From Candidatus Latescibacterota bacterium (lineage in GTDB: Bacteria; Latescibacterota; UBA2968; UBA8231), in NCBI GenBank assembly GCA_965206595.1, contig OZ242214.1:96001-160000 (forward strand): a DNA stretch of 64,000 bases, read 5' to 3'. A program made the position numbers and the translations under genes. Position 1 is the stretch's first letter. Every line of letters starts with the position of its first letter. The notes under the pieces are model-generated. The model saw nothing but the letters and a program-made list of their open reading frames with translations, had not been told where the DNA came from and did no database searches. Of the stretch, positions 14,913 to 32,384 are shown in pieces.

Positions 14913-16358
14913 GGCTCCTCTGGAGAATCTGTGGGTGAGGAGGGGAGGCTGCGGCGATGGGAATAGAGGAGGCCAGGTAGCCCAGGCGCATCATCCCCCG
15001 GTATGTTGGGACAGTCCACCAAGACGGAACCCAACTACCTGTGGAGGGAATGATGCGCCTGATCACGGTACTAAACCGGTGCACGACCTTCAAGCGGTTT
15101 GTGTTTGAGGGCAGTCATTTTGACCGGCACGGAAGGATAATGGTGAGGATCAGGCCACGGAAAAACTCCCGGGGCGCGTGCAGCGGCTGCGGTCACTTGG
15201 CCCCCACCTATGACACGGCCCCCGAGGCCCGGCTGTTCGAGTTTGTTCCCCTCTGGGGGTTTCCGGTCTTTCTGGTGTATCGCATGCGCCGGGTTGCCTG
15301 CAAAGCCTGCGGCCGGGTGGTCGTCGAGAAGGTCCCCTGGAGCACGGGCAAGCACCACCTGACCGACCTCTACCGCTGCTTCCTGGCCCAGGGGGCCAAA
15401 AAACTGTCGTGGATCGAGGTGGCGCGTTCCTTCCGGACCCGTTGGGACAAGGTCTACCACTCCGTCCAGTACGTCGTGGACTATGGGCTCGCTCATCGCT
15501 GCCTCGACCAGGTCACGGCCCTCGGCGTGGATGAAATCCAGTATCGTAAGGGGCCTCATTATCTGACGTTGCTGTACCAGATCGACCCCCACCGCCGCCG
15601 CCTGTTGTGGATGGGCGAGAAGCGGACGAAGAAGGCCTTGAACGACGGCTTTACCGAACGGGAGCAGGAGCACCGGCGCAAGCAGGAAGCCGGCGGCGAG
15701 CAGGAGCCGACCCGTTTCCTCGACCAGATTACCGTCATCTGCTCTGATATCTGGAAAGCCTACCTCGACGTTATCAGCAAGCGGCTCCCCACCGCGGTAC
15801 CTATTCTCGACCGTTTTCACCTCATGCAGCACTTCAGCAAGGCCCTCGACAAAGTCCGTGCCGAAGAGGCCCGCAGACTCAAAGAACAGGGCCAGGATCC
15901 GGTCCTGAGCAAGAGCCGCTGGTGCTTCCTGAAGCGCAAGGAGAACCTCAGCGACTCCCCCCCAAGGCTTGAAGCTGTCGGAGCTATTGAAGATGAACCT
16001 GCGGACGGTCAGAGCCTACCTGCTCAAGGAGGACTTCCAGCGCTTCTGGGACTACACCTACTCCGCGTGGGCTGAGAAGTTCCTCCAGCGCGGGTGTTTC
16101 CGTACGATGAGAAGCAACATCGAACCGATGAAAGACATCGCCGGAATGCTGCGGCGTCACCAAGAGCTCATCCTCAATTGGTTCAGGGCCAGGAAGCAGT
16201 TCAACAACGGCATGGTCGAGGGCTTGAACCTGAAATGGAATCTGACAGGGAGAAAAGCATTCGGATGCCGCACCTTCAAGGCACTCCAAATCGCTTCATT
16301 CCATCAGCTCGGCGATTTACCCGAGCCACAATTCACCCACGAATTCTACTGACGAGCC
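14913..16358 (+). mobile_element. ISL3-family element
   Basis: Imperfect IRs GGCTCCTCTGGAGAAT / GGCTCGTCAGTAGAAT (13/16); no TSD. Confidence 0.85.
15050..16352 (+). pseudogene. ISL3 transposase, frameshifted
   Basis: CxxC..CxxC, LGVDE, CSDIW, LDRFH and NGMVEGLN motifs; frameshift at the C7 run 15957-15963. Confidence 0.88.
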
Positions 16359-16701: not shown

Positions 16702-18279
16702 GGGCGTCTTAAGTAATTGTCATAGCGCAATTCAGGTGGCGTATGTGTATATTTTACAGTAAGTTGCTTTCTTTTGCCGCATCCCCTGCGGCGCGCTCCC
16801 CTGATTTCAGAAAGAAGGGGAGCGATGAGTGCGATTCTCTCTCTGGAAGTTTTTCAGGAGCGGCAGAGTCAGGACCGCTTTCGAAGCCGGGCGCATGAAG
16901 CCTTGGACCAATGGCTGGATCGGGTGGAGGCGCAAATGAGCGCGCGCGGATCTTGTGCGCCGACGTTGATGGAGATCACCGCGGCGATGTCTCAAGAGCG
17001 CTCCGGGCTCCCCGCGGCCTTGGTGGAAGCCTTCGTCGAACGCCGCCACGGCCATTTCCTGGCCCAGGAAGAGGCGGCCTGCCCCAAGTGCAAAGGCCTG
17101 CTGCGAGCGCGCCCGTCTCGCTCGCGCACGCAGGAGACGCTGCTCGGGCCGGTGACCTTGGAGCGTCCCTATTTCTACTGCGTTGGCTGTCAGTACGGGT
17201 TCTATCCGCTGGACGAAGCTCTCGGTCTGTCGGCGCAGCGCAAGCAGTGGGACGTGCAGCAGGCCGGGGTCAAGCTGGGGCTGGAGATGCCCCACCGGCG
17301 CGCCGCCGAACTGTTGGACGAGCTCACCGACGCGTCGATGAGCGATTGTGTGATTCACGAGGTGCTGCAACAGACCGGGTCGTTGGACGTGCTGCAGGTG
17401 TGTCCGGACGCGGCCGACATCCAGGATCGCATTGCGCACGCCGCCGCCGGTCGCAAGTGGCGGCCCATCGTGGTGTTGGCCATCGACTAAGGCCGACGTG
17501 CCCCGTCGTCCCCAGACCGCCAAAGGCACCCGTCCCGGACGCAAGAAGAGCCGGTCTCGGCGAAGGCGTTGGCAGGGGGAATACCACGAAGCCAAGGGCT
17601 TTCGCTTCTACCTGATAGACGATGAGCGCATCGAGCAGCTGATCTCCTGGCACCAGATGGGCAACGAACAGGCCTTCGGCGCGGCCTTGCGCCAGGTCAA
17701 GGAGGCGGGGCTGATCCCGGAGGATCAGGTGCGCTTGTGTGCCATCGGAGATGGCGCTCCGTGGATCTGGAAGGGGGTGGAAGAGCTGTTCCCCGGCGCC
17801 CGTCAGATCCTCGACTACTCCCATTGCAGCCGCTACCTGCACGCGGTGGCCGAGGCCCAATACGGCGCCGATGCGGCGCGTGCTGCCCATTGGCTGGAAG
17901 CGACCTTGGCTTTGCCTGTTCTGCGGCGAGGGCACCGGCGTGGTCTGGGGGCTGCAGCGCATGCAGCCGCTCTCGGAAGAGGCCGGAGAGGCCATCGGCA
18001 CGGCCTTGACCTACCTGCAAAAGCGACTGCACCAAGTCGATTTCGGCAGCCATCGCAAGGGGGGATACCCGATCGGGTCGGGGGCGATCGAATCGGCGCA
18101 TCGCTTCATCGGCCATGTTCGTCTGAAACGGTCGGGCGCTTGGTGGTATAAGGAAAACAGCAACGCCATTCTGGCCCTGCGCTGCGCCTTGTACAATGGA
18201 ACGCTTGACCGGGTCTTTCAGCAGTACCGAGAAAACCTGAAAACAACCACCGAAACCGTAACAATCAGCTAAGACACCC
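16702..18279 (+). mobile_element. ISKra4/UPF0236-like element
   Basis: IRs GGGCGTCTTAAGTAATTGT / GGGTGTCTTAGCTGATTGT (15/19); no TSD. Confidence 0.78.
16825..18272 (+). pseudogene. ISKra4-like transposase in three frames
   Basis: CPKC..R.YFYC..C..GFYPLDE.LG, IGDGAPWIW, ILDYSH and GYPIGSG.IESA..RLKRSG.WW motifs; breaks near 17488 and 17910. Confidence 0.82.
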
Positions 18280-18765
18280 GTCGAGGATTTCAACGATGCG
18301 CCGTTGTTCGGAAAGCGGTGGAAGAGGGATTTCTATTTCCTTGATGTCGTTGTCGGAAACGGCCGGGTAATTCGCGCCTCTGACGCGTTCTGACAACACA
18401 GCGACAAAATCACGTGTGATCGTGAGATAAAACAAGAAGCGAGGTTCTACAACGGCATTATTTGATCGCAGAACACAAAAGCCGGTTGAAGCGATATGGC
18501 CATTGAGGTGGGCCGGAACCATGGCGACGGCGTTGAGGTTCGGACGTACTGTCGACACCAGTATGTCGTCTTTCCGAATGACTTTCCGTGCACGGCTCGG
18601 AGCCTGGGCACCTGGCATGGTTTGGTGTTCGACGATTACCTTGTGAGTGCGGTCAATTCCGGAGATGTCGACGTACTGGAACTCGCCAGGAATTTCTCGG
18701 CGCGGATCGATTTGCTCGGTGGGTTCACACACATCAGCGATGGTTGCGGTGTTCCACCCCATCAT
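18280..18765 (-). pseudogene. hsdS: Type I R-M specificity subunit, truncated after the first TRD
   Basis: APSRARK..DILVSTVRPNL, STGFCVL and IPLPPLSEQRRIVEILD, ending at the IS boundary. Confidence 0.9.
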
Positions 18766-19154
18766 TCGCCCTCCATCTCTTCCAACTTTCCCCGAACCTG
18801 TTCAAGCAAAGCCTCGACGAGCCCGAGCGCCGCTTTGCGATCGATCGGATCGGTACTCGAATCGACACCACCATACCGGAACTCGACGGCATACGGAGTG
18901 TACATGGCCAGCTTTCGGAAAGCCTTCATGTCGACAGCCCGCGCGGCGAGCTGATTCACCAACGCCTCGAGATTGTGGGTAAGCGGGTAGGTCTCGCCGA
19001 GCAATGCGAGCCAGGCCTTGAAGGATTTCTCCGCGGCCTGCTGCACGTGAAACCCATACGATTCATCCGGCACCCCGGCAGTCATGTTCCGGAGCGTGAG
19101 GACATCGCGTTCGGCCGCATCGAGCAGCATCCGGGCGCACTTAGGGTCGCTCAT
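18762..19154 (-). CDS. HEPN-domain protein (MNT-HEPN toxin-antitoxin pair)
   Basis: FHVQQAAEKSFKA..L..YPLTHNL..L..YAVEFRY signature. Confidence 0.85.
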   Translation of the reverse strand: MSDPKCARMLLDAAERDVLTLRNMTAGVPDESYGFHVQQAAEKSFKAWLALLGETYPLTHNLEALVNQLAARAVDMKAFRKLAMYTPYAVEFRYGGVDSSTDPIDRKAALGLVEALLEQVRGKLEEMEGE

Positions 19155-19476
19155 AGAGCACCTTGCCTTCCCGTAGCGCCCGGGCCAGAACGTGGTTGAG
19201 AGAGTCGCGCCAGTAATCGACCTCGTCGTGGGTATAGACCAGGACGTCGGCAGAAACCGGAAAGTCCGCCAGGACCTTGTAGAGTCTGACCATCTCTTTG
19301 TGCCGGCTCCGCTCCCGGCCGAACGGCTCGGCTTCCAAGACCACCAGATCGACGTCCGATTCCTCTCGCTCGTCGCCGCGGGCGCGGGAACCGAAGAGGA
19401 TCACCTGCTCGGGATCGACCTCGCCGACGATGGCCTGGACCATCTGGTCGATGAGGGTGTCGGTGATTCCGGTCAC
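19141..19476 (-). CDS. Minimal nucleotidyltransferase (MNT)
   Basis: ILFGSRARGD...SDVDLVV; 111 aa; overlaps both neighbours. Confidence 0.9.
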   Translation of the reverse strand: MTGITDTLIDQMVQAIVGEVDPEQVILFGSRARGDEREESDVDLVVLEAEPFGRERSRHKEMVRLYKVLADFPVSADVLVYTHDEVDYWRDSLNHVLARALREGKVLYERP

Positions 19477-21119
19477 TGCTCCACCTCTTCGAGCAGTTTC
19501 TCCAGCCCCGCAGTTATTTCACGCTCGATCGCCAGCACCTCGCGGATCAGCTCCGCGGGATCCTCGTCCGGAACCGGCTCGGCAACCCGTGGCTTGTAGC
19601 GCGAGGCGGTGAGGTTGTAGTCGTTCTCCGCAATGGTTTCGAACGGCGCCCACCAGCAGCGGGGCTCCTCGCTGCCCGGGTCGAGCACGGCGCCGGCTTC
19701 CTCGCCGGGTGGTTTCTCGAAGCGGGATTCCTTGTAATCGTTCCAGGCCGCCAGCAGCCCGGGGATGTCGTTCTCCCCCGGCGTCTCCGGACGGCCGCCT
19801 CCCTGGATCTTGTCGGGGTCGTAGCCGTCGTTGCGGATCTCGTAGAACCACACCTGTCTCGTAGCCGTCCGGCCCTCTTCCGGCTCGGTCGCCGGGCGCC
19901 GGAAGACGAGCACGGAGGTTTTGACGCCGGCGTACGGTTTGAACACGCCGGCCGGCAGCGACACCACCGCTTGCAACTCGTATTCCCGCAGGAGCTTCTC
20001 GCGCAGTTCCTTGTGAGCTCTCGTCGAGCCGAAGAGCGCGCCCTCCGGTACCACCACGGCGCAACGTCCCCCCGGCGCCAGGGAGCGCAGCATCAGGGCA
20101 ATGAACAACAGCTCGCTCTTTCTCGATTTTGTTGGCAGATCCTGGCGAATCGAGTCCCTGGGGATCTGGCCGGCAAAAGGCGGGTTCGAGAGGATCACCG
20201 CGTAGCGCCGGTTCAGATCGTCCTCGGTGAGTCCGCTCATCTCGGAGAGGACGTTGGCGCGCTTGAGGCGGGCATGGCGGATCCCGTGGAGCACGAGGTT
20301 CATGACGGAGATCCGCATCATCTGGCGCGATACGTCGGTGCCGTAGATGGATGCCTCGAGCCGGCTCCAGTCGGGTATCCTCTCCCCCGGCCCCTTCCGG
20401 TAGGTCTGGAGATTGGGGATCTCCTCTTTCACCTCTTCGAGAGTTTGCCCCCGTTTCTCGAGCCAGTCCTCACCGTAGACCGGCACTTCCTGGGGCTCCT
20501 CGCTGTAGCGGGCAAGGATGTGGTCGACGACGTCGATGAGGAAACCGGCGGTGCCGCAGGCCGGGTCGTACATGGTGTCGCCCAAGTCCGGATCGGTCAT
20601 CTCGACCATGAAGGCGCGGATCTGTCGCGGGGTGCGGAACTGGCCGTTGAGCGCCGACTGTCCGAGATGGGTGAGCAGGTATTCGAAGATGTCGCCCTTG
20701 ATGTCGGGCCCGAGCTTGCGAAAGTCGATGGAGTCGAACATGTCGATCACCTGCTTGAGCACGTTCGGATCGACGATCTCGAGCACGGCGTCGCGAAAGT
20801 ACTCGGCCACCTGCGGGTCGTCCTTGACCAGCGACGCCATGTACGGGAAGACCTCGTCGCGCACGAAGTTGCGCAGATCCTCTCCGCTCTTGAAGCGCCA
20901 CTTGGACCAGCGGAAGCGCTCGGCCTGCGCGGGAAAGAGGAGAGCGCCGTTGCCGGCCCCGAGCCGGCCTTGGAGCTCGCGGGTGGTTTCCTCCTCGTCG
21001 AGGAGCTTCAGGTATATGAGGTAGGAGATCTGCTCGATATAGGTGACGGGATTGGTCACGCCACCGGCCCACAGGATGTCGGTGATCTGGTCGAGCTTGC
21101 GCCGCAGTGTCTGGTCCAT
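19473..21119 (-). CDS. hsdM: Type I R-M N6-adenine methyltransferase
   Basis: GQFRTPR, DPACGTAGFL, NPPF and SLPAGVFKPYAGVKT motifs; start at MDQTLRRK. Confidence 0.95.
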   Translation of the reverse strand: MDQTLRRKLDQITDILWAGGVTNPVTYIEQISYLIYLKLLDEEETTRELQGRLGAGNGALLFPAQAERFRWSKWRFKSGEDLRNFVRDEVFPYMASLVKDDPQVAEYFRDAVLEIVDPNVLKQVIDMFDSIDFRKLGPDIKGDIFEYLLTHLGQSALNGQFRTPRQIRAFMVEMTDPDLGDTMYDPACGTAGFLIDVVDHILARYSEEPQEVPVYGEDWLEKRGQTLEEVKEEIPNLQTYRKGPGERIPDWSRLEASIYGTDVSRQMMRISVMNLVLHGIRHARLKRANVLSEMSGLTEDDLNRRYAVILSNPPFAGQIPRDSIRQDLPTKSRKSELLFIALMLRSLAPGGRCAVVVPEGALFGSTRAHKELREKLLREYELQAVVSLPAGVFKPYAGVKTSVLVFRRPATEPEEGRTATRQVWFYEIRNDGYDPDKIQGGGRPETPGENDIPGLLAAWNDYKESRFEKPPGEEAGAVLDPGSEEPRCWWAPFETIAENDYNLTASRYKPRVAEPVPDEDPAELIREVLAIEREITAGLEKLLEEVEQ

Positions 21120-21129
21120 CCCGTTCCTT

Positions 21130-23862
21130 TCAGCTCGCAGTCCTGAAGACGTCTTCGTCCAGCTGCTCCACCACCTGCCTGAGACCATCCTCGCCGAACA
21201 ACTCGACTCCCCTGCCGGCGGCGTCGAGAATCGACAGCGGCGGCTCGAACAGGTCGTTCAGGCTTACTCGGCCCGTGGCGATGCCCCGATTCTTCAGCAG
21301 GCAGAGGTACTCCGCCTGCTGCGGGGTGAGGGCCCGCACTACGAGCCAGGCTCGGAAGGCCTCTTCGAGCTTCTCCTCTCGGCTCTTGATGCGCAGCCGC
21401 CCGAGCGCGGCGCGGATGAAATCGACGAAGTTGCCGCCTGGCTCGCGGTAGGCGCGGCGCAGGTTCTCCTGGTTGAAGTAGTGCTCGGGCTGGTTGAGGC
21501 GGCGGGCAAGCTCCTCCTCTTCGTCCGGCTCGAGATGCTCTTCGTCGCGCACTTTCTGAAGCAGCGGATCGTCGGCCGCCCGGGATCGGATCGTCTCCAT
21601 CCAGCGGGTTAGGTATTCCTCCTTGTCGACTCGTTCTCCCTCGGGGCCGACCTCGACGTAGGTGACTGCTTCCAGCCACTCGTCCTCCAGCCCGAGCTCG
21701 ACGAGATCCCGCGTCTCCGGCCCTGTCCTGGGGCCGCTCGGGGCATGTCCACCCGACGTTCCGGTGAACACGTCGGTATCGCTGTCGTTGAAGTACTGGT
21801 GATTCCTGAAGAAGTCGTAGATGACAAATTTCCGCTTGCGGATATGCGGCGCGGTGCGCGTGCCCCGGCCTCGCATCTGCTGGTAGAGAATGGGGCTTCG
21901 CACCCTCCGGCAGAGCACGAGGTGGAGGATCTCGCGGCAGTCGAAGCCGGTGTCGAGCATGCCGACGCTCACCGCGACCATGGGGAAGGTCTCGGTCTTG
22001 AACCGGCGAATCAGGGTGTCCGGATCGGCCACGTCGGAGGTGATGACCTCGGCATAGCGGCCCTTGTGTTCGGGGTGCAGCTCGTTCAGGTACTGCGCCA
22101 GTCTCGCCGCGTGGTGCTTGGTGATGGCGAAGACGATCCCCTTGCCCGGGCCCGGGTCCTGGCCGGGAGCCAGTTCCGAATAGGTCTCCCAGGCAAGCCG
22201 GTCGAACTCCTCCATCATAAGGCGGTTGGTCTCTTCGTTGGTCCAGGCGCGTTCGAACTCGACTGGGTCATAGTGTTCGTCGTCGAGTTCGGCCCCCTGG
22301 GCCAGGATCTCGGTGATGCCTCTGGCGAAGCGGTAGGGCACGAGGTATTCCTCGTTGAAGGCGTCCTTTATTGAATAGGAGACGTCCGGTTTGCCCGGCT
22401 CGCACTGGTAGAAGTCGTAGGTGTTGCGCTCGATGAAGCTTGCCGGCGTGGCCGTGAGTCCGATATGGAGGGCGTCGAATCGCGTGAGCGCTCCCTGCCA
22501 GGCGCCATAGATGGAGCGGTGGCATTCGTCGGCGATGACGATGTCGAAGTAGCCGGCGGTGTACTCGTCGACGCGGCCAATCATGGTCTGAAGCAGGGTA
22601 ACGGTGATCTGCTGCTCCTGGCGCGCCATGCCGGGCCGCAGCCAGTAGCTCGAATACGCACCCAGAATGTCCTGGATGGCTTCAAGAGCCTGCTTGGCGA
22701 GCTGGTCGCGGTCCGCCAGGAAGAGGATTCGCTCGGCCCAGCCGGCTTGCAGGAGTCGCTTCAGGTAGAGGCAGATGAGGTCGGTCTTGCCGGTACCGGT
22801 CGGCAGCTCGATCAGGAAGCGCCGCCTGCCGAGCTCCAGCGCGTGGTCGAGCGCCTGCATCGCCTCGGCCTGGTAGGGCCGCACCGTGCGCGTTTCCCCC
22901 TGGCGGATGTAGTGCTCCGGGATTTCGACCGTGGCGAGCGGCCTGCGCGTCTCCCGCGTCTCCACCATGCGCTCGAGATCACGCTGAGAGAAGAAGCCGG
23001 CGATGGGGCGGGCGTCGTCGTTCTGGTAGTCCCAGAAGTAGGTCAGCTCCCCGTTGGTGAGGAAGATGAAGGGTGCTTCGAGCGCCTTGGCGTAGGGCAG
23101 GGCCTGTTGCTTGGCGACATAGGGATTGATGGCGTTCCTCTTTGCCTCGATGACGGCCAGCGGGCGGCCGCGCTGGTCGTAGAGGACGTAGTCGGCGCGG
23201 CCGGTTGAAGCGTCATCCGCGGCTTCGAGCAGGCAGACGAACTCGCCGACGACGCGGAGGTCCCCTTCTGCGCCTGGGTCGAAGACGAGGTCCTCGTAAG
23301 CCGGATCCGGATTGAGCGGCTGCAGCCGGATTTCGCGATGGCTCCAGCTGTCCCCATCCGGTTCGGCTGCTTTCGTGCTGCTGTATTTCTTGACGGAGAA
23401 CTCGCCTCCGAGCGCCGGATCGGTGCAGCCGCGGTGCCAGACGAGGACGAGCTTTCCCTCCCTGGTCCCGCCGCGGTCCGTCCGAAACAGGCAGTAGGAA
23501 CCGTCGGGGATGGCCGGCTCCATAGAGTGCCCTTCGATGCGGGCAACGAAGTGGTCGCGGGTGAGCCGGACGCGGCCCGGCACCGCCATCCAGCCGATTT
23601 CGTCATGCTCGGTTCCGACGGTCTGGTCCGGGCTGAATTTTCCTGCCGCGGCAATCAGACCGTAGACCGGCGCGTGCGTTTCGAATGGCCTCGCTCCCAC
23701 GCGGTCGACGATTCGGGCGCGACTGGGGGCGGAAGCCGCCTGGACCTCGGTACCGACCATCGACTGGTCGTCCGCGTCCCAGCCGGACTGCGCCAGCAGT
23801 TCGTCGATAACTATGCGGGCGTCCGCCTCGTTTTCGCGCCGGTTCATCATTTCCTCGTCCAT
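21130..23862 (-). CDS. hsdR: Type I R-M restriction subunit (EcoEI/EcoAI-like) with an inserted S24 peptidase domain
   Basis: ADYVL..IEAK nuclease motif; RPYQ, PTGTGKT, DECH, LTATP and QMRGRGTR helicase motifs; residues about 63-212 are LexA-like. Confidence 0.92.
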   Translation of the reverse strand: MDEEMMNRRENEADARIVIDELLAQSGWDADDQSMVGTEVQAASAPSRARIVDRVGARPFETHAPVYGLIAAAGKFSPDQTVGTEHDEIGWMAVPGRVRLTRDHFVARIEGHSMEPAIPDGSYCLFRTDRGGTREGKLVLVWHRGCTDPALGGEFSVKKYSSTKAAEPDGDSWSHREIRLQPLNPDPAYEDLVFDPGAEGDLRVVGEFVCLLEAADDASTGRADYVLYDQRGRPLAVIEAKRNAINPYVAKQQALPYAKALEAPFIFLTNGELTYFWDYQNDDARPIAGFFSQRDLERMVETRETRRPLATVEIPEHYIRQGETRTVRPYQAEAMQALDHALELGRRRFLIELPTGTGKTDLICLYLKRLLQAGWAERILFLADRDQLAKQALEAIQDILGAYSSYWLRPGMARQEQQITVTLLQTMIGRVDEYTAGYFDIVIADECHRSIYGAWQGALTRFDALHIGLTATPASFIERNTYDFYQCEPGKPDVSYSIKDAFNEEYLVPYRFARGITEILAQGAELDDEHYDPVEFERAWTNEETNRLMMEEFDRLAWETYSELAPGQDPGPGKGIVFAITKHHAARLAQYLNELHPEHKGRYAEVITSDVADPDTLIRRFKTETFPMVAVSVGMLDTGFDCREILHLVLCRRVRSPILYQQMRGRGTRTAPHIRKRKFVIYDFFRNHQYFNDSDTDVFTGTSGGHAPSGPRTGPETRDLVELGLEDEWLEAVTYVEVGPEGERVDKEEYLTRWMETIRSRAADDPLLQKVRDEEHLEPDEEEELARRLNQPEHYFNQENLRRAYREPGGNFVDFIRAALGRLRIKSREEKLEEAFRAWLVVRALTPQQAEYLCLLKNRGIATGRVSLNDLFEPPLSILDAAGRGVELFGEDGLRQVVEQLDEDVFRTAS

Positions 23863-23893
23863 GGAAAATTAGATGAACGCAAAGCGCGTGCCA

Positions 23894-25402
23894 TCATTCG
23901 CCCACCCCGTAGCGTTTCATCCAGTTGGTGAGGGTCTGGTAGCTGGGCAGGCCGACGAGGTCGGCCGCCCTGGTCTTGTTGCCCTGCCCCTCGTCCAGGG
24001 CCCTCTCCAGGTAGTGGCGGGCCACGGATGCCAGAATCCCGGGCAGGTCGAGACCGTCGCCGAGGGGCTTGCCAAGCACCGATGCCTTTCCGGTTTCGCC
24101 CGCGGGCAGGAGGGAGTCGCGAATGTCCTCCGTCCTCAGCGTGGCTTCCGGGGTCCAGATCGCCGCGCGTCCCAGGGTGTTCTGCAGCTCGCGGACATTC
24201 CCGGGCCACGGGTGCGCGAGAAGGAGGTTTCTCGCTCCGGAAGAAAGTTCCTTCTCCACGAATCCCGGCTGCCCCCGCCCCTCCCGGTTCACGAGGGCGA
24301 GAATGTGATCGATCAGGAGCGGGAGATCGTCGCGCCGGTCCCGTAACGGGGGCAGTGGCAGCACCGCCACCGCCAGGCGATGGAAGAGGTCCTCGCGAAA
24401 GGCGCCGGCCGCCACTTCGGACAGGAGAGAGCGGTTGGTGGCCGCGATCATTCGCACGTCCACCTTGCGGCTACGAGAAGTCCCGACCGGAAGCACCTCC
24501 CCCTCCTGGAGCGCGCGCAGCAGCTTCACCTGCGCGGGCTTGGGAAGCTCTCCCACCTCGTCGAGGAACAGGGAGCCCCCGGATGCCTCCACGAAATGGC
24601 CTTTGCGGTCCTTTGTAGCCCCCGTAAATGCTCCCTTTACGTGACCGAAGAGCTCGGATTCGACGATCTCCGGAGGAATGGCGCCGCAGTTGACGGCCAC
24701 GAAAGGCTTGTCGCGCCGCGGACTGGTGCGATGGATGGCGCGGGCGAGAAGCTCCTTGCCGGTACCTGTCTCCCCTTCGATCAGCACCGGGACGGAGCGC
24801 GGGGCGACGCGGCGCGCCCGCAGGATCACGCGCTGCATGGCCTGGCTCCGGTGCAGGATCTCCTCGAATTCCGGCGCCTCCGGGGAGAGACCGGCGCTGA
24901 GGCGCTCGAGCTCCTCGTCCGGGCGGCGCAGCAGATCCGGAAGGAAGTCTGCTGAAATATCGAAGGGGACGGACACCGTGCTGACGCCGTGCTGCTTCGA
25001 GGACTCGATCAGCTCCGCGGGAAAGCGCGTCTTCGCGAGGATGATCCATACCGCGGCCATGGCCGGCGTGCCCGGGCTCAGGTGAAAGGTGAGGGCCGTG
25101 TCCCTGGGGCCGCCGGCCAAGGCCGTCTCGCAGGCGCGGACCGCGGCGACGTAGATCTCGCCGAATTGGGTGGGACCGGTGAGCTCCTCGTGGAGCAGGT
25201 GAAGGGTGGTGCCTTCGCAGCGCTGCTCGAGCCACTGCCGGTAGGGGCGAACGGCGCCGGCCTCGTGGTCGAAGAGCAGGTAGGCGTCATCGAACTCGCG
25301 GGCCATCAGCGCCTGGGCAACCGGCCCGGTTCCGACTGTCGGCTCCTCTTCGGGAGCGTCCAGGTCCGTGTTGCCTATCCAGGTGATGAGAGTCTTTAAC
25401 AC
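23894..25402 (-). CDS. Sigma54-dependent activator with an RtcR/CARF-like N-terminal domain
   Basis: [47 protein letters not shown] and a Fis HTH; N-terminal WIG.TD and [13 protein letters not shown]-like motifs. Confidence 0.88.
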
Positions 25403-25994: not shown

Positions 25995-27854
25995 CCCTTG
26001 TTATTCATGGAATTTTAGTGGAGAGGGCTGTACTGGGTGCCTCCCATGCTTAGATTTCAGAGGGAAACACAAGGCAGTATCGCCCTTTGAACCCATCACA
26101 CAGTAGGACACCCAATGGGTGAATTACCGTCACACACCGAGTCCGAGCAAGCCGGGCCGATTCAGCCGTCTTTCAACCGCTCCATCCACATCGAAGCCCG
26201 CCCCACCCACCTTGGCAGCGACACCGGTGCGCTGATGTTGCGTCAACTGCTCGAACACAGCCGGGTTCTGGATTGGGTCGACGCCCACTTCGAGGATCTC
26301 CGTACCCAAGACCAGATCACGCACCCGCTGCCGGAGCTGCTGCGCACACAGATCGTGCTGCTGGCACAGGGCTGGACCCACGCCGCCGACGCCGACGCGT
26401 TGCGCCAAGATCCGATCCTGCGTCTGGCGGTCAGCGATCGCAAAGGGCAGGCGCCGTTGCGCAGCGGCGACGAAGACCGGCCGCAGGGACTGGCCAGTCA
26501 GCCGACGCTGTCGCGCCTGCTCGAGCAAGCCTCGACTGCCTATAACCGCGAGGTGTTGGAGGAAGCCGTCCTGCGCAGCGCCCGGTCTCGTTGCCGGCTG
26601 CTGGAAGGACGGATGAAATACGAGGAGTTGGCCGTCGACATGGATGCCCTGCCGATGCCGGCGCACGGGCACCAGGCGGGGGTCGAATACAACGGCTACT
26701 TCCACGCCTCGGGGTACCATCCCCTGCTCCTCGGCTCGGCGCAGACGGGCGATTTCTTCGGTGCCGTGCTGCGGCCGGGCAACGTGCACGCCCATGAGGG
26801 CGCCTCAGAGGCTCTCGGCAAGCGCTTGGACTGGATTCAGTCGCATCTGGCCCGGCGCCTCATCCTGCGCTTCGACGCGGCCTCGGTGAGCGGGTCTTTC
26901 CTGAGTGAGCTGGAAGCGCGGGCCGACACCTCGTACGTGGCGCGCATCAAGAAGAATGCGCGCCTGGAGGAGCTGGCTCGTGCCTGGGTGGAAGGCTATC
27001 AGCAGGAGCTGGCGCAGCACCCGGAAGAGCTGCGGGAAGAGGGTTTTCGCTGTCGCGAGCTGCGCTATCAAGCCAGGTCCTGGGCGCAGCCCCGGCGGGT
27101 GGTGTTGGTCCTGGTCCCTTCCGAGACGGAAGAGCTGCCCATCGCCCGCCACTTCTTCCTGATCACCGACCAGAGTCCCCAGACGATGAGCGGCCGCGAC
27201 CTGGTCGCCTTTTATCGTCAGCGCGGCCTTTTCGAGCGCATGCTCGGCGAGTTGAGCTCCACCCTCCAGCCTCAGCTCTCCTCTACCACCCGTCGCAAGC
27301 AACACTACCGGGGTCGAGAGCCGCGTCAGCGCACCCCGTCCCGGGATGCCTTCGCTGCCAACCAGGCGCTTCTGACCTTGAACCTGCTGGCCTACAACCT
27401 GCTTCACCTGGGCCGCCAGGCCGCCGAACGCGCCGAGGCCCGACGCGGGCGGCCCCGCACATACGGACGCTCGACGACGGCCCTGAGCCTGGACAGTTTT
27501 CGACGGCGCTACCTGCGCCTGCCGTCCCGCGTCACCTTGCATGGGCGCAGGGTGGGCGTCATCCTGACCCAAGGGACGGCGGCTGCCTGGGATCGTCTGT
27601 GGAGATTTCTGGCCACGCTCAAACCGGTGGACGCGGCGATGGCGTAAGCGCAGGCCGGGTCGGTCGGGATGATGGGCTCGCAAAGGCAAGCGTCTTCGAG
27701 AAGGCGCGTACAATTTCAACAAGGTCGGTAGAGATAAGGAGACGGCTCTACCCAAAAAGCCGACTATAGAAGGGACGCAAGCCTCTGAGGCTAAGCAAAG
27801 GGGTCTCGGAAGCGCCTATGTCCGCTTATGCGCGGGTTGAATGAATAACAAAGG
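25995..27854 (+). mobile_element. Complete IS1380-family element, copy 2 (1860 bp)
   Basis: IRs CCCTTGTTATTCAT / CCTTTGTTATTCAT (13/14); 5-bp TSD TTTAA at 25990-25994 and 27855-27859. Confidence 0.95.
26115..27647 (+). CDS. IS1380-family transposase, intact
   Basis: 510 aa; SDTGAL, D.D.LR.DP, ASQPTLSR and DDE motifs. Confidence 0.93.
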   Translation: MGELPSHTESEQAGPIQPSFNRSIHIEARPTHLGSDTGALMLRQLLEHSRVLDWVDAHFEDLRTQDQITHPLPELLRTQIVLLAQGWTHAADADALRQDPILRLAVSDRKGQAPLRSGDEDRPQGLASQPTLSRLLEQASTAYNREVLEEAVLRSARSRCRLLEGRMKYEELAVDMDALPMPAHGHQAGVEYNGYFHASGYHPLLLGSAQTGDFFGAVLRPGNVHAHEGASEALGKRLDWIQSHLARRLILRFDAASVSGSFLSELEARADTSYVARIKKNARLEELARAWVEGYQQELAQHPEELREEGFRCRELRYQARSWAQPRRVVLVLVPSETEELPIARHFFLITDQSPQTMSGRDLVAFYRQRGLFERMLGELSSTLQPQLSSTTRRKQHYRGREPRQRTPSRDAFAANQALLTLNLLAYNLLHLGRQAAERAEARRGRPRTYGRSTTALSLDSFRRRYLRLPSRVTLHGRRVGVILTQGTAAAWDRLWRFLATLKPVDAAMA

Positions 27855-28234: not shown

Positions 28235-28780
28235 ATGACCGGAGATCCCCACGGAAAGGACCTGACCAAGATGAACCGAGCACTGCGTGACATCCTCTTG
28301 GAGGCGTCTGAAGACGAACTCCGAGAAGCGTTCGCCGATACAGGCGAGGACCTCGACTCCCTTGCAGCCCGTGGAAAGGAAGCCGCCCAACGCGCCCTCT
28401 CCGAGACACGCGACGGCGCTGGGGTCGAAGACTTGCACCGGGGTCTGAGTGCGCTCCTTCAGATGCTGCGTCGACGTGAACAACTCTCCATTGACGTTCT
28501 CGCACAGAACGCCCACGTGGATGCATCTGAACTGCGCTGCATCGAACACGACCCGGCGTTTGACCCCAACCCCCGCACAATTTTCCAGCTTGAGCAGTAT
28601 TTCAAGCTCCCGGAGAGAAGCCTTGTCGTTCTCACTGGCGCGGTTCAGGTCGACGATGACGTTCGAGAGGAGGCGGTGCGCTTCGCTGCGAGTTCTGAAC
28701 ATATCTCAGATCTCACGAGAGCTCAGCGCAAGCAACTCAACCTATTCGTGAAGTTCCTGAGAAAACACACCGACCGATGA
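28235..28780 (+). CDS. XRE-family HTH protein
   Basis: LQMLRRREQLSIDVLA....VDASEL.CIE..PNPRTIFQL; ATGA overlap with the next gene. Confidence 0.8.
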   Translation: MTGDPHGKDLTKMNRALRDILLEASEDELREAFADTGEDLDSLAARGKEAAQRALSETRDGAGVEDLHRGLSALLQMLRRREQLSIDVLAQNAHVDASELRCIEHDPAFDPNPRTIFQLEQYFKLPERSLVVLTGAVQVDDDVREEAVRFAASSEHISDLTRAQRKQLNLFVKFLRKHTDR

Positions 28781-29754
28781 AAAATCATCCAATAGACCCG
28801 TTCGCGGCGGAAGATATTAAGGATCAGGTGGATAAGGTGCTACGTGGTCTGGATAACCCCGAACCACCGCTAGACCTAGGCGATGTGCGTGAACTTCTCA
28901 AACTTGACCTCCAGTTCTACAGCACTAGGAATACTGGAGCACTCCGCGAGTTCGTGAGCAGGGTTAAGGTAGGGGGAAAGCAGATCGCGATGAGGCCAAC
29001 CCTCATCCTCGACGTGGTCAGCCAAGCAGGTTTGAAGGCCCTTTGGATTCCTGATAGGAGCCGCATCCTTATCAACGAAGAGCTTCATAAACTAAAAAGG
29101 CGGCACGCGGTAGGCCACGAAATTACGCACAGTATCATGCCCCACCATCGTCTGTTCTTGTTTGGCGACGACCGTGAGACGTTGCGTACTTCGTGTCACG
29201 AGAAGCTCGAGTCAGAGGCCAACTTTGGCTCTGGGCAGCTCCTTTTTCTTAGGGAGCGATTTGTTGAAGAAGCGAACGACTTACCGCCAACCCTCAACAC
29301 GGTTCAAAAACTAGCCAAGAGGTTCGGCAACACTATAACCATGACTTTGTGGCGACTCGTTGAGGAAGCTCACGCAGGCAAACCTGTCTTTGGTGTGATC
29401 TCCCCACACCCGAAGCGTCTTTGCGACGACTTCGACCCGACGACGCCATGTCGTTACTTCATCGAGTCTCCGGCATTCCGCGAGCGTTTCGGTATTGTCA
29501 CTGAAGTAGCTGCCTTCGAAGCCATACAGGAGTACGTATCATGGGCGCGCCGAGGCCCGCTGGGGGAGAGCTACGGTGATTTCGTTGGCTGTGATGGAGA
29601 ATCGCATCGTTTCCACATGGAGACGTTTTTCAACGGTTACGAGGCGCTTACGATCGGTACTCACCGTGGTCTCGTGCCCGCGCAGGTGGCTGTTCCGGCA
29701 GACTATCCTCATCCAATGTCCGCGGAGCCATCACACACCGGCATAGGTAAGTAG
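28777..29754 (+). CDS. ImmA/IrrE (CapP-like) zinc metallopeptidase
   Basis: ILINE..RRHAVGHEITH (HExxH) and E.EANF motifs, an HTH-like segment LAKRFGNT and a C-terminal extension. Confidence 0.88.
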   Translation: MKNHPIDPFAAEDIKDQVDKVLRGLDNPEPPLDLGDVRELLKLDLQFYSTRNTGALREFVSRVKVGGKQIAMRPTLILDVVSQAGLKALWIPDRSRILINEELHKLKRRHAVGHEITHSIMPHHRLFLFGDDRETLRTSCHEKLESEANFGSGQLLFLRERFVEEANDLPPTLNTVQKLAKRFGNTITMTLWRLVEEAHAGKPVFGVISPHPKRLCDDFDPTTPCRYFIESPAFRERFGIVTEVAAFEAIQEYVSWARRGPLGESYGDFVGCDGESHRFHMETFFNGYEALTIGTHRGLVPAQVAVPADYPHPMSAEPSHTGIGK

Positions 29755-29829
29755 TAGCACCAGTGGCCCACCTTCTGAACGAGGGGGCCACCTTCACAAT
29801 CCCCGTTAGACCAAAGAGGAGATCAATCG

Positions 29830-30162
29830 ATGGGAACCAATGTTTCCGGAACTACCGAGCGCGAAGAACTCGACATCGAGGCTTTCGCCAAAGAACAACC
29901 CGATCTCGAGAAACCACCCGCTGGCGTCTACATCATCCGCATCGACCGAGAGCGGAAGCGTGTGCATGAGCCGGAGCTTCCCGGGATCAAGATTCTTGCG
30001 CTGGTGGGCAAGACGCCAGACACCCACAAGCTCTTCCAGAAGTTCCATGGCGGCGAAACCAAGGAAGTCAAGGAGGAAGAGGTTGTGAGCTTCCTCAAGG
30101 AGGGCATCGAACGATTTCAGACCATCCCGAAGGACACCACTGAAGGGATTTTTGGTGGTTGA
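29830..30162 (+). CDS. Multiubiquitin-family ubiquitin-like protein (one beta-grasp domain)
   Basis: YIIRID....V....L.G..IL.LVGKTP..L....VSF...GIERF.T pattern; ends TTEGIFGG; GAGGA RBS. Confidence 0.8.
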   Translation: MGTNVSGTTEREELDIEAFAKEQPDLEKPPAGVYIIRIDRERKRVHEPELPGIKILALVGKTPDTHKLFQKFHGGETKEVKEEEVVSFLKEGIERFQTIPKDTTEGIFGG

Positions 30163-30565
30163 CGACCGGCGTCAGTTCCAGTTACCCGATTTCGATCTTG
30201 AGTTTCTCGACCGCCGCGGCCGGCCGTGGGAGGCGGTGGTCGAGAACGGCATGCATTGGGTAGTTCTCCACGACCATCCGGTTTCCAAGGGCTACAACCA
30301 CACGAGCGTGAGCGCCGCACTTCAGTTGCCGCAGAGTTATCCTGACACTCAAATCGACATGGTGTACTTCTACCCGCATCTGGCACCGACCAACGGAAAG
30401 CTCCCCCGCCGACTTTCGTCCCATAAATTCGACGGAAAGATCTGGCAACGGTGGTCACGGCACCGCACAAATGCCAACGTGTGGCGCCGCGGTTACGACT
30501 GTATCGAGACACACCTCTTGCTTGTCAACGAGTGGCTTGAACGCGAACTCAGATGTGCCGCTTGA
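30152..30565 (+). CDS. Prokaryotic E2 (family E-like) UBC-fold protein
   Basis: LP..D..FL, P...GYN, LP.SYPDTQIDM.YF.P and WQRWSRH motifs. Confidence 0.82.
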   Translation: MVVDDRRQFQLPDFDLEFLDRRGRPWEAVVENGMHWVVLHDHPVSKGYNHTSVSAALQLPQSYPDTQIDMVYFYPHLAPTNGKLPRRLSSHKFDGKIWQRWSRHRTNANVWRRGYDCIETHLLLVNEWLERELRCAA

Positions 30566-31950
30566 GTGATATCCGACTCCGTCTGACGGGTCAGCAACAC
30601 GCCGATTTGCGCCAACATCTGTTTCCAGGTGACGGGAAAGAGGCGGTGGCGGTTGCTCTTTGTGGCCGAACGGCATCACTTGGGTCGGAAATCCTGCTCG
30701 TTCACAAGCTAGACCTCGTGCCCCACGAGGCGTGTAAGCGCCGCCGAGACCGAATCAACTGGCCCCCGACGCACGTTGAACGGTTTTTCCGCGAGGCTTC
30801 CGCTAACGACTTGGCCATCGTAAAGGTACACAGCCACCCCGACGGCTTCGGTGGTTTCTCGAGTACCGACGATGATTCAGACAGAAAGCTATTCGAGTCG
30901 GTCTATGGTTGGGTCGATGGGGACCGCCCGCATGCAAGCGCCATTATGCTGCCGGATGGTCAGATACGAGCTCGCGCAGTGTCAGCCGGAGGAGCGTTCG
31001 CAACGGTGCGCCACGTTCAAGTTGTAGGTAACGATGTTCTCTTCTGGCCCGACCAACCGGAGTTGGCAGTCCCTGCGTTCGCCGAACGCCACGCCCAGTT
31101 ATTCGGACTTGGCACAACTGCGTTACTTGGCAGCCTCCGGATCGCTGTGGTGGGATGCTCTGGAACGGGCAGCCCGGTCATCGAGCAGCTCGTTCGCCTT
31201 GGGGTGGGGGAACTCGTGCTCGTGGATCCCGACCACGTTGAAGAACGGAATCTCAACCGAATCCTGGGGGCTACAGTAGAGGACGCAAGCCAAGAACGGC
31301 TCAAGGTGGACGTGATAAAGCGCCACATCGACCGGATTGGGCTCGGTACGCAGGTTTATAAGTTCGCTTCCGCTCTGCAGGACCAGGCAGCCATGAGAGC
31401 TGTCGCGGCTTCCGACCTCGTTATTGGGTGCATGGATGGCTTTTCGGGCCGCCACATGCTTGCACGGCTCATTCGCTACTACCTTCTCCCTTACATCGAT
31501 GCCGGCGTGAAGCTCGAAGCCCTTGAAGATGGAACCATCAACCAAGTCGCTGGGAGTGTTCACTACCTCCAACCGACAGGTCTCGACTTTATCGACCGCG
31601 GTGTGTTTACCCTCGAAGACCTCGAGGCTGAGGACCTGTTTCGAACGAATCCCGAAGAATACCGTGAACGACACGCCCGAGGCTATGTTCGTGGGGTTCA
31701 GGTTGACCGCCCTGCAGTCATCAGTGTGAACATGTACTTCGCAAGCCTTGCCGTGAACGAGGTCCTCGCCCGGCTACATCCCTTCCGCATGGACGACAAC
31801 GAGGAATTTGGGACCACCCGCATGAGTCTCAGTCATTTCCAGCTTGAAAACGAAGGTGACGGGCTTGCTCCTCCCCGTATGCTCGCTTCGGTTGGCCGTG
31901 GCGACATCGACCCTCCCCTCGGAATGCCGAGTTTGGGATCACGCCCATGA
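30553..31950 (+). CDS. JAB/MPN peptidase-ThiF/E1 adenylation enzyme fusion
   Basis: N-terminal E..HSHP..FS.TDD JAB motif; C-terminal VVGCSGTGS, DPDHVEERNLNRI, K and GCMD E1 motifs. Confidence 0.9.
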   Translation: MCRLSDIRLRLTGQQHADLRQHLFPGDGKEAVAVALCGRTASLGSEILLVHKLDLVPHEACKRRRDRINWPPTHVERFFREASANDLAIVKVHSHPDGFGGFSSTDDDSDRKLFESVYGWVDGDRPHASAIMLPDGQIRARAVSAGGAFATVRHVQVVGNDVLFWPDQPELAVPAFAERHAQLFGLGTTALLGSLRIAVVGCSGTGSPVIEQLVRLGVGELVLVDPDHVEERNLNRILGATVEDASQERLKVDVIKRHIDRIGLGTQVYKFASALQDQAAMRAVAASDLVIGCMDGFSGRHMLARLIRYYLLPYIDAGVKLEALEDGTINQVAGSVHYLQPTGLDFIDRGVFTLEDLEAEDLFRTNPEEYRERHARGYVRGVQVDRPAVISVNMYFASLAVNEVLARLHPFRMDDNEEFGTTRMSLSHFQLENEGDGLAPPRMLASVGRGDIDPPLGMPSLGSRP

Positions 31951-32384
31951 ACGTGCTGAAGCAAGTCTGGTCTTGGCTTCGGTGGCCTTTTTCTCCAACC
32001 CCTGTGCACCGTCCAGTGGTTGTCGAGGAACTCCCGGAGCAGTTCTACGCCGGGGAGATATATCTGATTGGCGAGGATGGACATTTCTGGTGTGCTGCAA
32101 TGCTCTGCCCGTGCGGATGCAGAGCAATCATCCAGCTTAACCTCGTTGCCGGAACTCGACCTCTTTGGACATTCGAACTCGATTCCGACACCAAAGCCAT
32201 CACCCTACAACCCTCGGTCTGGCGCACTGCAGGCTGCCGCAGCCATTTCAGTATTCAACTGGGTCGTGTGCGGTGGTATCGATCACGGCGTTCGTTCAGA
32301 TCAATGCTGAGGGTGCTCAGGGACTGGGTCGACGAAAAAAGGATGCCGCCTGGGCTCGGATCCCATCGCCGCAGTGCGGCTTAA
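31947..32384 (+). CDS. DUF6527-like Cys/His-rich protein
   Basis: CPCGC...I.LNL...P.W...TL.PSVW...GCRSHF.I..G.V.W; ATGA overlap with the E1 gene. Confidence 0.78.
   Translation: MNVLKQVWSWLRWPFSPTPVHRPVVVEELPEQFYAGEIYLIGEDGHFWCAAMLCPCGCRAIIQLNLVAGTRPLWTFELDSDTKAITLQPSVWRTAGCRSHFSIQLGRVRWYRSRRSFRSMLRVLRDWVDEKRMPPGLGSHRRSAA

Follow-up and report, generated by a model that had tools for sequence, protein, structure and literature searches.

Peptidase domains of family S24 are known as the switches of repressors and of UmuD. Here we describe a predicted S24 domain inside the nuclease domain of a type I restriction subunit (HsdR), encoded on the minus strand of a 64,000-nucleotide (nt) stretch of DNA from a Candidatus Latescibacterota bacterium (assembly GCA_965206595.1, contig OZ242214.1, positions 96,001 to 160,000 of the forward strand; hereafter the window, in which all coordinates are counted), and we argue that it may serve as a damage-coupled off-switch of the enzyme.

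Among solved structures, the best relative of this protein is the type IB-like HsdR of Vibrio vulnificus YJ016 (HsdR_Vv, PDB 3H1T; E 7.9e-36), whose nucleolytic core consists of Glu26, Asp77, Glu92 and Lys94 (Uyen et al. 2009, PMC2777439). According to the same work, Glu26, Asp77 and Glu92 form a putative Mg site with Glu26 as a fourth catalytic, metal-binding residue, and residues Thr55-Arg75, named the 'internal extended region', form a beta2-beta3 hairpin. This hairpin protrudes from the nuclease globule and touches both the linker helix and the second RecA-like domain; a model placed it in the DNA major groove, and it was proposed to switch the enzyme from translocation to cleavage, coupling motor and nuclease (PMC2777439). 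The window HsdR has the four catalytic residues and the QxxxY motif in common with HsdR_Vv; however, where 3H1T shows a plain hairpin of 21 residues, it has about 180 residues that include the S24 domain.

With respect to regulation, the closest described case is restriction alleviation after DNA damage, which needs ClpXP for type IA and IB enzymes (PMC3874165). The features that EcoKI (IA) and EcoAI (IB) would share with our system are a type I HsdR, here of IB-like kind, silencing after damage, and proteolysis of HsdR (PMC3874165, PMC4231737). In E. coli, however, ClpXP recognises the translocating HsdR, which has no built-in protease or cleavage site, whereas the window HsdR would carry its own damage-sensing cutter, with ClpXP perhaps taking part.

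An S24 domain in the nuclease domain of HsdR

The features of the hsdR gene that are needed below are as follows; residues are those of the 910-amino-acid (aa) open reading frame (ORF).

21130..23862, minus strand: hsdR, 910-aa ORF, type IB-like restriction subunit with internal S24 domain
23779..23835, minus strand: N-terminal helix, residues 10-28, with invariant Glu12 (profile alignment to 3H1T)
23740..23766, minus strand: first strand of the internal extended region hairpin, residues 33-41, with invariant Glu39 (insert-less relative aligned to 3H1T residues 55-62)
23707..23739, minus strand: variable N-side linker, residues 42-52 (low column conservation)
23227..23706, minus strand: S24 peptidase domain of LexA/CI type, residues 53-212 (Pfam PF00717, profile alignment to the genome's own LexA, BLASTP to phage CI, PHROGs)
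23641..23646, minus strand: predicted self-cleavage site Ala73-Gly74 in the motif Ala-Ala-Ala-Gly
23524..23526, minus strand: Ser113, predicted nucleophile (aligned to the LexA Ser motif)
23389..23391, minus strand: Lys158, predicted general base (aligned to the LexA Lys motif)
23203..23226, minus strand: short variable C-side linker, residues 213-220, leading back into the hairpin
22963..23202, minus strand: PD-(D/E)xK core, residues 221-300, with Asp224, Glu239, Lys241 and Gln253...Tyr257
21856..22887, minus strand: superfamily 2 (SF2) motor, ResIII at residues 326-474 and Helicase_C at 572-669 (Pfam)
21154..21621, minus strand: EcoEI_R_C C-terminal domain, residues 748-903 (Pfam)

A preliminary description of this DNA had proposed a LexA-like S24 module of about 150 residues within the HsdR nuclease domain at 23227-23676 (minus strand), which corresponds to residues 63-212, and the order of the Pfam domains bears this out: Peptidase_S24 matches residues 66-208 above its curated cut-off (E 5.4e-7; 29.8 vs 23.3 bits), and the HSDR_N match does not begin before residue 204, and is followed by ResIII, Helicase_C and EcoEI_R_C. 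The translation likewise contains Ala73, Gly74, Ser113 and Lys158 in the contexts quoted there, so that cleavage site and Ser/Lys dyad are intact as claimed. The type I restriction endonuclease models of PADLOC match from residue 215 or 216 on, and the SF2 motor and the EcoEI_R_C domain expected of a type I HsdR are both present. In NCBIfam the top-ranked family is the EcoAI/FtnUII type I R subunit at 255.5 bits, under its cut-off of 550; by this score HsdR is a relative of that equivalog family that falls outside it. Met5 or Met6 (23850 or 23847) is probably the true start, so real residue numbers may be 4-5 lower; N-termini of homologues begin at the Met6 position.

The position of the insert can be read from relatives that do not have it. 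The distance between the N-terminal helix motif and the Asp motif is 39-65 residues in insert-less close relatives vs 208-212 in insert-bearing proteins, which gives an extra piece of about 150-180 residues. In the insert-less relatives the first hairpin strand runs directly to the Asp strand. The window HsdR aligns to 3H1T from residue 221 and an insert-less relative from residue 30, and a profile of 12 insert-less N-termini aligns from residue 19 and places Glu12 on Glu26 of HsdR_Vv. The remaining residues map as Asp224 to Asp77, Glu239 to Glu92, Lys241 to Lys94 and Gln253/Tyr257 to Gln106/Tyr110, with identical spacing in both proteins from the Asp onward, and the point of insertion lies between the two strands that make up the Thr55-Arg75 hairpin. 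By these alignments the S24 domain is at the tip of the beta2-beta3 hairpin of the internal extended region, between Glu12 and Asp224/Glu239/Lys241. Apart from the start, a point on which the preliminary description has to be corrected is the EADAR sequence, taken there for HsdR motif I, which belongs to the N-terminal helix bearing the fourth catalytic Glu. No direct repeats were found flanking the insert boundaries.

Assignment of the insert to family S24 is supported by a family score above threshold, by Ser and Lys in the family motifs and by an Ala-Gly bond N-terminal of the Ser; dyad and cleavage site are what it has in common with LexA, CI and UmuD (MEROPS S24, PF00717). A profile of the subfamily (24 sequences) aligned with the genome's own LexA, which itself passes TIGR00498, at 93% probability (hhalign; E 2.8e-7), pairing Ser113 and Lys158 with the LexA Ser and Lys motifs, and the best PDB matches of this profile were lambda cI, LexA and UmuD. 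In a phage collection the insert matched three records, all annotated 'putative prophage repressor CI'; one of them aligned by BLASTP over 171 residues (E 4e-11), a stretch that takes in the cleavage strand as well as the Ser motif, and the PHROGs match was phrog_4, 'transcriptional repressor' (E 2e-14). As a single sequence, the insert matched no S24 entry in PDB and no NCBIfam model, and BLASTP against the genome's own LexA was not significant, which rules out a recent copy of lexA as its source.

The insert is remote in sequence from LexA, CI and UmuD, and self-cleavage is predicted from its residues. Its putative cleavage strand is LexA-like (Pro-hydrophobic-x-Gly-x-hydrophobic-Ala-Ala-Gly). 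In comparison to LexA, it has an extra loop of about 10 residues after the Lys strand, and 39 instead of the 35 residues of the genome's own LexA separate the Ala-Gly bond from the Ser. In contrast to LexA and CI, it has no DNA-binding domain and lies within an enzyme domain, where both of its ends are tethered.

Conservation and selection

A protein search with residues 1-290, from which the best 120 clusters (all at least 71% identical) were taken, showed Gly74, Ser113 and Lys158 in 121 of 121 sequences including the query, Ala73 in 116 (Gly in the other five) and Glu12 in 120; 113 of the 120 clusters carry a precomputed PF00717 label. The GxSMxP motif of the Ser and the Ala-Gly bond are present at all 36 insert-bearing loci found in genomes (see below). 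In metagenome contigs the Ser is kept at 31 of 31 loci, and the Ala-Gly bond and the Lys in the 30 that cover each of them; in one of these copies Ala replaces the Met after the Ser. Across the wider S24 subfamily (134 domains) the Ser is found in 134 and the Lys in 133, Ala (118) or Cys (14) stands directly before the predicted cut, and Gly follows in 122. Two positions before the cut there is Ala (106/134) or Val (18/134), and the next residue is Ala in 131. The dyad is thus kept in all examined insert-bearing homologues that cover the site, contrary to the loss of conservation that had been named as a possible refutation. The motifs of nuclease and motor are invariant in 74 of 74 aligned sequences.

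The ratio of nonsynonymous to synonymous substitutions (dN/dS), pooled over 10 fairly close pairs, and the mean aa identity over 31 full-length proteins differ between the parts of the protein:

Nuclease core: dN/dS 0.045, mean aa identity 0.90
Helicase: dN/dS 0.08, mean aa identity 0.83
S24 part: dN/dS 0.11, mean aa identity 0.74
HsdR C-terminal domain: dN/dS 0.11, mean aa identity 0.74
N-side linker (region 42-59): dN/dS 0.33, mean aa identity 0.38
C-side linker: dN/dS 0.80, mean aa identity 0.23

A dN/dS of 0.11 together with the invariant motifs of nuclease and motor indicates that the insert is kept by selection in an enzyme that is itself kept working. The idea of a neutral or decaying insertion or an assembly artefact, to which signs of decay in this genome (a truncated hsdS and a frameshifted hsdR in a same-genus genome) might be thought to point, can be dismissed on the strength of this ratio, of an open frame with all motifs intact and of the recurrence of the insert in 36 genome and 31 metagenome loci from independent assemblies.

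Two metatranscriptome libraries (X19 and X20) contained one short contig each on the S24-coding part (window 23178-23449), one of them with an in-frame insertion of 3 nt in the variable C-side linker. We do not count them as evidence for expression, because contigs cannot show transcription and carry-over of DNA is possible.

Spread of the insert form and of S24 tails

The best 80 of 117 relatives in species-representative genomes included 36 loci with the insert, 43 without it and one partial locus, and among the best 80 of 172 relatives on metagenome contigs 31 had it; the possibility that it might be unique to one assembly, raised in the preliminary description, is thereby contradicted. All 36 insert-bearing genomes are metagenome-assembled. 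Their labels are Latescibacterota, Aminicenantes, Binatia, Acidobacteriota, Planctomycetota, Gemmatimonadota, Spirochaetota, Pseudomonadota, Thermodesulfobacteriota, Actinomycetota, Anaerolineaceae, Schekmanbacteria and one Thermoplasmatota archaeon; the last (loci L020/L021) is doubtful and maybe a binning artefact, because it is near-identical to a Vicinamibacterales contig (pN 0.001). Among viral contigs we found no HsdR of the insert form. Within Latescibacterota, the organism's own phylum, 13 of 151 sampled genomes encode the S24 subfamily, four in the insert form and 10 as a C-terminal tail in frames of 1180-1242 aa.

One such tail is encoded by the same genome as the window. A second type I system (locus L006:5318-15914) consists, on one strand, of hsdM, a 375-aa ORF, hsdS, a 317-aa ORF, a gene for an Abi_C protein and hsdR, and its HsdR of 1180 aa ends in the same S24 subfamily, so that both topologies coexist in one genome.

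Searches with the S24 part recovered 1568 representatives at E<=0.001 (870 at 1e-10) among 1.84 billion, of which the best 150 were surveyed for their partners; 133 of them have a complete domain. In about 120 of these 133 the S24 domain ends 12 residues or fewer from the C-terminus. Leaving aside a Zn-ribbon tail, an unexplained tail of 193 residues and low-complexity ends, an internal position occurs among the best 150 only in the HsdR inserts, and it is therefore only in this HsdR clade that a cut would fall inside a catalytic domain. The tail forms on restriction and defence enzymes are terminal members of the same subfamily, at 40-55% identity to the insert. A partner domain known to Pfam is present in 55 of the 150, and in 46 of these 55 it is of nuclease, helicase, methylase or specificity type; the other 95 are S24 alone or show no Pfam domain, many of them being short fragments. 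The partners are:

SLFN-g3/DUF2075 helicase: 15
Type_ISP_C: 9
Helix-turn-helix (HTH; repressor-like members): 6
Insert-form HsdR: 5
HNH_4: 4
Other SF2 helicases: 4
Others (DUF3037, HAD_2, Zn ribbon): 3
T1RH-like_C (HsdR tails): 2
AlbA_2: 2
AlwI: 1
McrBC: 1
PLD/NgoFVII: 1
HsdS: 1
N6_Mtase: 1

The scatter of partner types over the tree of S24 domains indicates that the cassette moves between enzymes. A well-supported clade in this tree (P0150-P0256) is made up of proteins of about 270 aa in which the same cassette follows an N-terminal domain of about 120 residues; this domain has no Pfam match, and one member carries DUF3037. A plasmid collection gave one S24 match, on a Halomonas replicon, where it lies unannotated behind an ORF for a DUF2075-type helicase in another frame.

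The S24 tree (134 rows) groups the HsdR inserts into a single clade with support 99, which lies within the tail-form domains. A quick tree of HsdR itself, built on 690 shared residues from 64 of 81 sequences (17 truncated or motif-less rows were excluded), places 27 of 31 insert-bearing proteins in one clade, again with support 99. An insert-less protein branches just outside this clade, within a larger group most of whose members bear the insert, and at an unresolved fork one insert-bearing protein falls among those that lack it; three gains or losses of the insert are needed, of which at least two are forced. We read these trees as suggesting one capture, perhaps one loss, and subsequent horizontal spread.

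Genomic context

The genes around hsdR are arranged on the minus strand in the order RtcR-like activator, sigma-54 box, hsdR, hsdM, a nucleotidyltransferase/HEPN pair and a remnant of hsdS:

25454-25425, minus strand: sigma-70-like promoter of the RtcR-like gene
23894..25402, minus strand: gene for an RtcR-like activator with CARF, sigma-54 AAA+ and HTH domains (Pfam; PADLOC RtcR_PspF2, E 6e-195)
23879..23893, minus strand: exact sigma-54 -24/-12 box in the 31-nt gap before hsdR (sequence match)
19473..21188, minus strand: hsdM, longest ORF (Pfam); the probable start, by inference, is Met24 at 21119
18762..19476, minus strand: MNT nucleotidyltransferase and HEPN pair between hsdM and hsdS (Pfam)
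18265..18765, minus strand: hsdS remnant of 166 aa with one target-recognition domain (Pfam)

The sigma-54 box is the sole match with 0 mismatches in the 64-kb window and ends 17 nt upstream of the first ATG of hsdR. An RtcR-like regulator lies upstream of hsdR at 21 of 36 insert loci and also at 21 of 43 insert-less loci, and wherever it accompanies an insert-bearing hsdR the box is kept in position (21/21; 16 exact, five with one mismatch). The genome contains rpoN. As the conserved box lies between regulator and hsdR, the gene looks inducible by a signal sensed through CARF. An association between RtcR-like CARF regulators and systems of restriction and modification (R-M) has been predicted (Makarova 2014, PMC4012209), and the sigma-54 activator adjoining hsdR here is of that type. 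It would act at the level of transcription, separately from the S24 module.

Relatives have MNT and HEPN genes at the same place in 7 and 6 of 36 insert loci, respectively. Their full HsdS has 401-425 aa; the window hsdS matches only about residues 20-180 of relatives' HsdS proteins of 421-425 aa, and its second half was not found in the 64-kb window. The operon thus has hsdM but not a complete hsdS. The remnant is adjoined by debris of insertion sequences (IS), namely an ISL3 transposase ORF (15041-16075) and UPF0236-like pieces in three frames (16774-18272). Because hsdS is truncated, the local R-M copy probably does not function, even with its hsdR intact. In a genome of the same genus (locus L008, 8031-10728), the orthologue of this hsdR, insert-bearing too and 96% identical, is broken up among frames 3, 2, 3 and 1, and these three or more frameshifts reflect either decay of the gene or indel errors in the assembly.

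Further out, an IS4-like element (DDE_Tnp_1_4 transposase) is present in two copies in direct orientation (1-1458 and 26397-27854), 99.9% identical over 1458 nt, which bracket about 25 kb holding the R-M operon and might form a composite transposon. At 28235-32384, genes for an HTH protein and an M78 (ImmA/IrrE-like) peptidase precede a multiubiquitin / prokaryotic E2 / JAB-ThiF (E1) / DUF6527 operon, a bacterial ubiquitin-like conjugation cassette of defence-linked kind.

Possible function of the S24 domain

The invariance of cleavage site and dyad is our reason to argue for real self-cleavage, which, as far as residues can tell, quite probably takes place. A damage signal, most likely the filament of RecA on single-stranded DNA (RecA*) as for LexA and CI, would induce Ser113 and Lys158 to cut the chain after Ala73. 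This would part the first ~70 residues, comprising the Glu12 helix and the first hairpin strand, from Asp224, Glu239 and Lys241, and would leave a floppy tail of ~30 residues ending in Ala-Ala-Ala-COOH, which an unfoldase of the ClpXP type could pull and so dismantle the nuclease, as with the N-fragment of LexA. The corresponding last three residues are Val-Ala-Ala in the LexA fragment and Leu-Ala-Ala in the ssrA tag. Cleavage of LexA has been reported to reveal latent ClpX signals (PMC10584840), and the genome holds LexA, two recA genes, clpX and clpP. In tail forms the cut would remove the S24 domain and leave an enzyme ending in Ala-Ala-Ala, and in the insert form the S24 domain would stay tied to the second hairpin strand through the 8-residue linker; a cut that exposes a degron explains both topologies.

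The preliminary description had inferred that self-cleavage triggered by RecA* could turn restriction off or on. Provided that cleavage happens, its outcome is somewhat more probably 'off' than 'on', because the module is a portable, usually C-terminal cassette and here splits the chain between the catalytic Glu and the D-ExK triad. With regard to the trigger, the analogy to LexA and CI inclines us slightly towards RecA*. The reading we favour, that of a functional self-cleaving module of LexA/CI type, captured once from a portable cassette, seated in the hairpin tip and acting as a damage-triggered fuse for restriction alleviation, comes on sequence grounds a little short of an even chance. 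Its most explicit version, in which a RecA*-sensing cassette severs the metal-binding Glu from the triad by its own cut and exposes Ala-Ala-Ala-COOH for ClpXP, amounting to self-contained restriction alleviation, is put forward tentatively.

Several observations weigh against this reading. The profile matches to cI, LexA and UmuD in PDB are marginal (E 0.003-0.08), and the cI alignments shift the Lys strand by one strand, although for the position of the Lys more trust is due to the LexA alignment and to Lys158 being invariant. The proposed degron depends on resemblance to the LexA and ssrA ends, and the off-switch depends on the unfoldase step, purely an inference, since the nuclease domain might remain folded and active after being nicked. 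Cassette partners of type IV-like kind have no obvious need to alleviate cutting at unmodified sites. With its truncated hsdS, and given the frameshifted hsdR of the same-genus genome, the local copy may no longer be active. Finally, some LexA-like proteins have been described to cleave without RecA (PMC7101444).

The existence of such RecA-independent proteins leads to the alternative that survives best, namely a self-cleaving fuse with another trigger, which might be pH, a small molecule, a phage protein, or a motor that stalls or collides. Since the element on which the insert sits touches both the motor domain and the linker helix, the state of the motor could be sensed; moreover, with BLASTP to the host LexA not significant, contacts to RecA need not be kept. 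But the subfamily includes HTH-S24 proteins resembling repressors (6 of the best 150 of 1568), its nearest named relatives are CI repressors and the cleavage strand is LexA-like, and we regard a trigger other than RecA* as unlikely.

A self-cleaving on-switch appears less likely still. Here the bulky S24 domain would keep the hairpin out of the DNA groove, and cleavage upon RecA*, formed during processing of phage DNA, would license cutting. Cleavage of a tail form would free the enzyme of its S24 domain entirely, and with an inducible sigma-54 promoter before hsdR the system looks built for action on demand. In the insert form, however, the S24 domain would remain tethered after the cut by the 8-residue C-side linker, which disfavours activation by release; the hairpin would be broken rather than restored and Glu12 parted from the triad. 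At the same tip, insert-less relatives tolerate loops whose length ranges from 8 to about 50 residues; bulk at this place need not, therefore, block activity, and activation by damage to host DNA would be self-harming.

A structural role without cleavage, with the S24 fold serving for dimerisation or for docking to the RecA filament, seems improbable to us. The C-terminal domains of LexA, CI and UmuD do dimerise, and a double-strand cut needs two nuclease domains; yet near-total invariance of Ser, Lys and Ala-Gly over 134 diverged domains would not be expected if only binding mattered. We therefore retain the damage-coupled off-switch as the preferred reading.

Conclusions

To our knowledge, the silencing of a cell's own restriction enzymes during repair is outlined only for EcoKI, where it involves ClpXP, and is obscure for most systems. 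Against the known S24 switches of repressors and UmuD, what appears new here, as judged from sequence comparisons, is an S24 module internal to the nuclease domain of HsdR, for which we found no published description. Full-text searches, whose coverage left out most subscription journals and supplements, retrieved no paper in which a restriction enzyme is described as bearing an S24 domain, and terms related to S24 or LexA are absent from a 2025 review of restriction-modification (PMC12707154), from the YprA/ARMADA preprint (PMC12458937) and from PMC12839542 and PMC10853773 (comparative genomics).

If the proposed off-switch is true, an HsdR equipped with a LexA-type cutter would tie the SOS signal straight to the enzyme without a detour through transcription, and would offer a simple model that comes down to one protein, one bond and point mutants. 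The internal position would make for a sharper test than the tail form, because there the cut falls between catalytic residues. Beyond this enzyme, defence nucleases of uncultured bacteria have taken up S24 domains on a wide scale. Public annotation keeps this hidden, with names such as 'DEAD/DEAH box helicase family protein', 'hypothetical protein' or 'type I restriction enzyme R subunit'.

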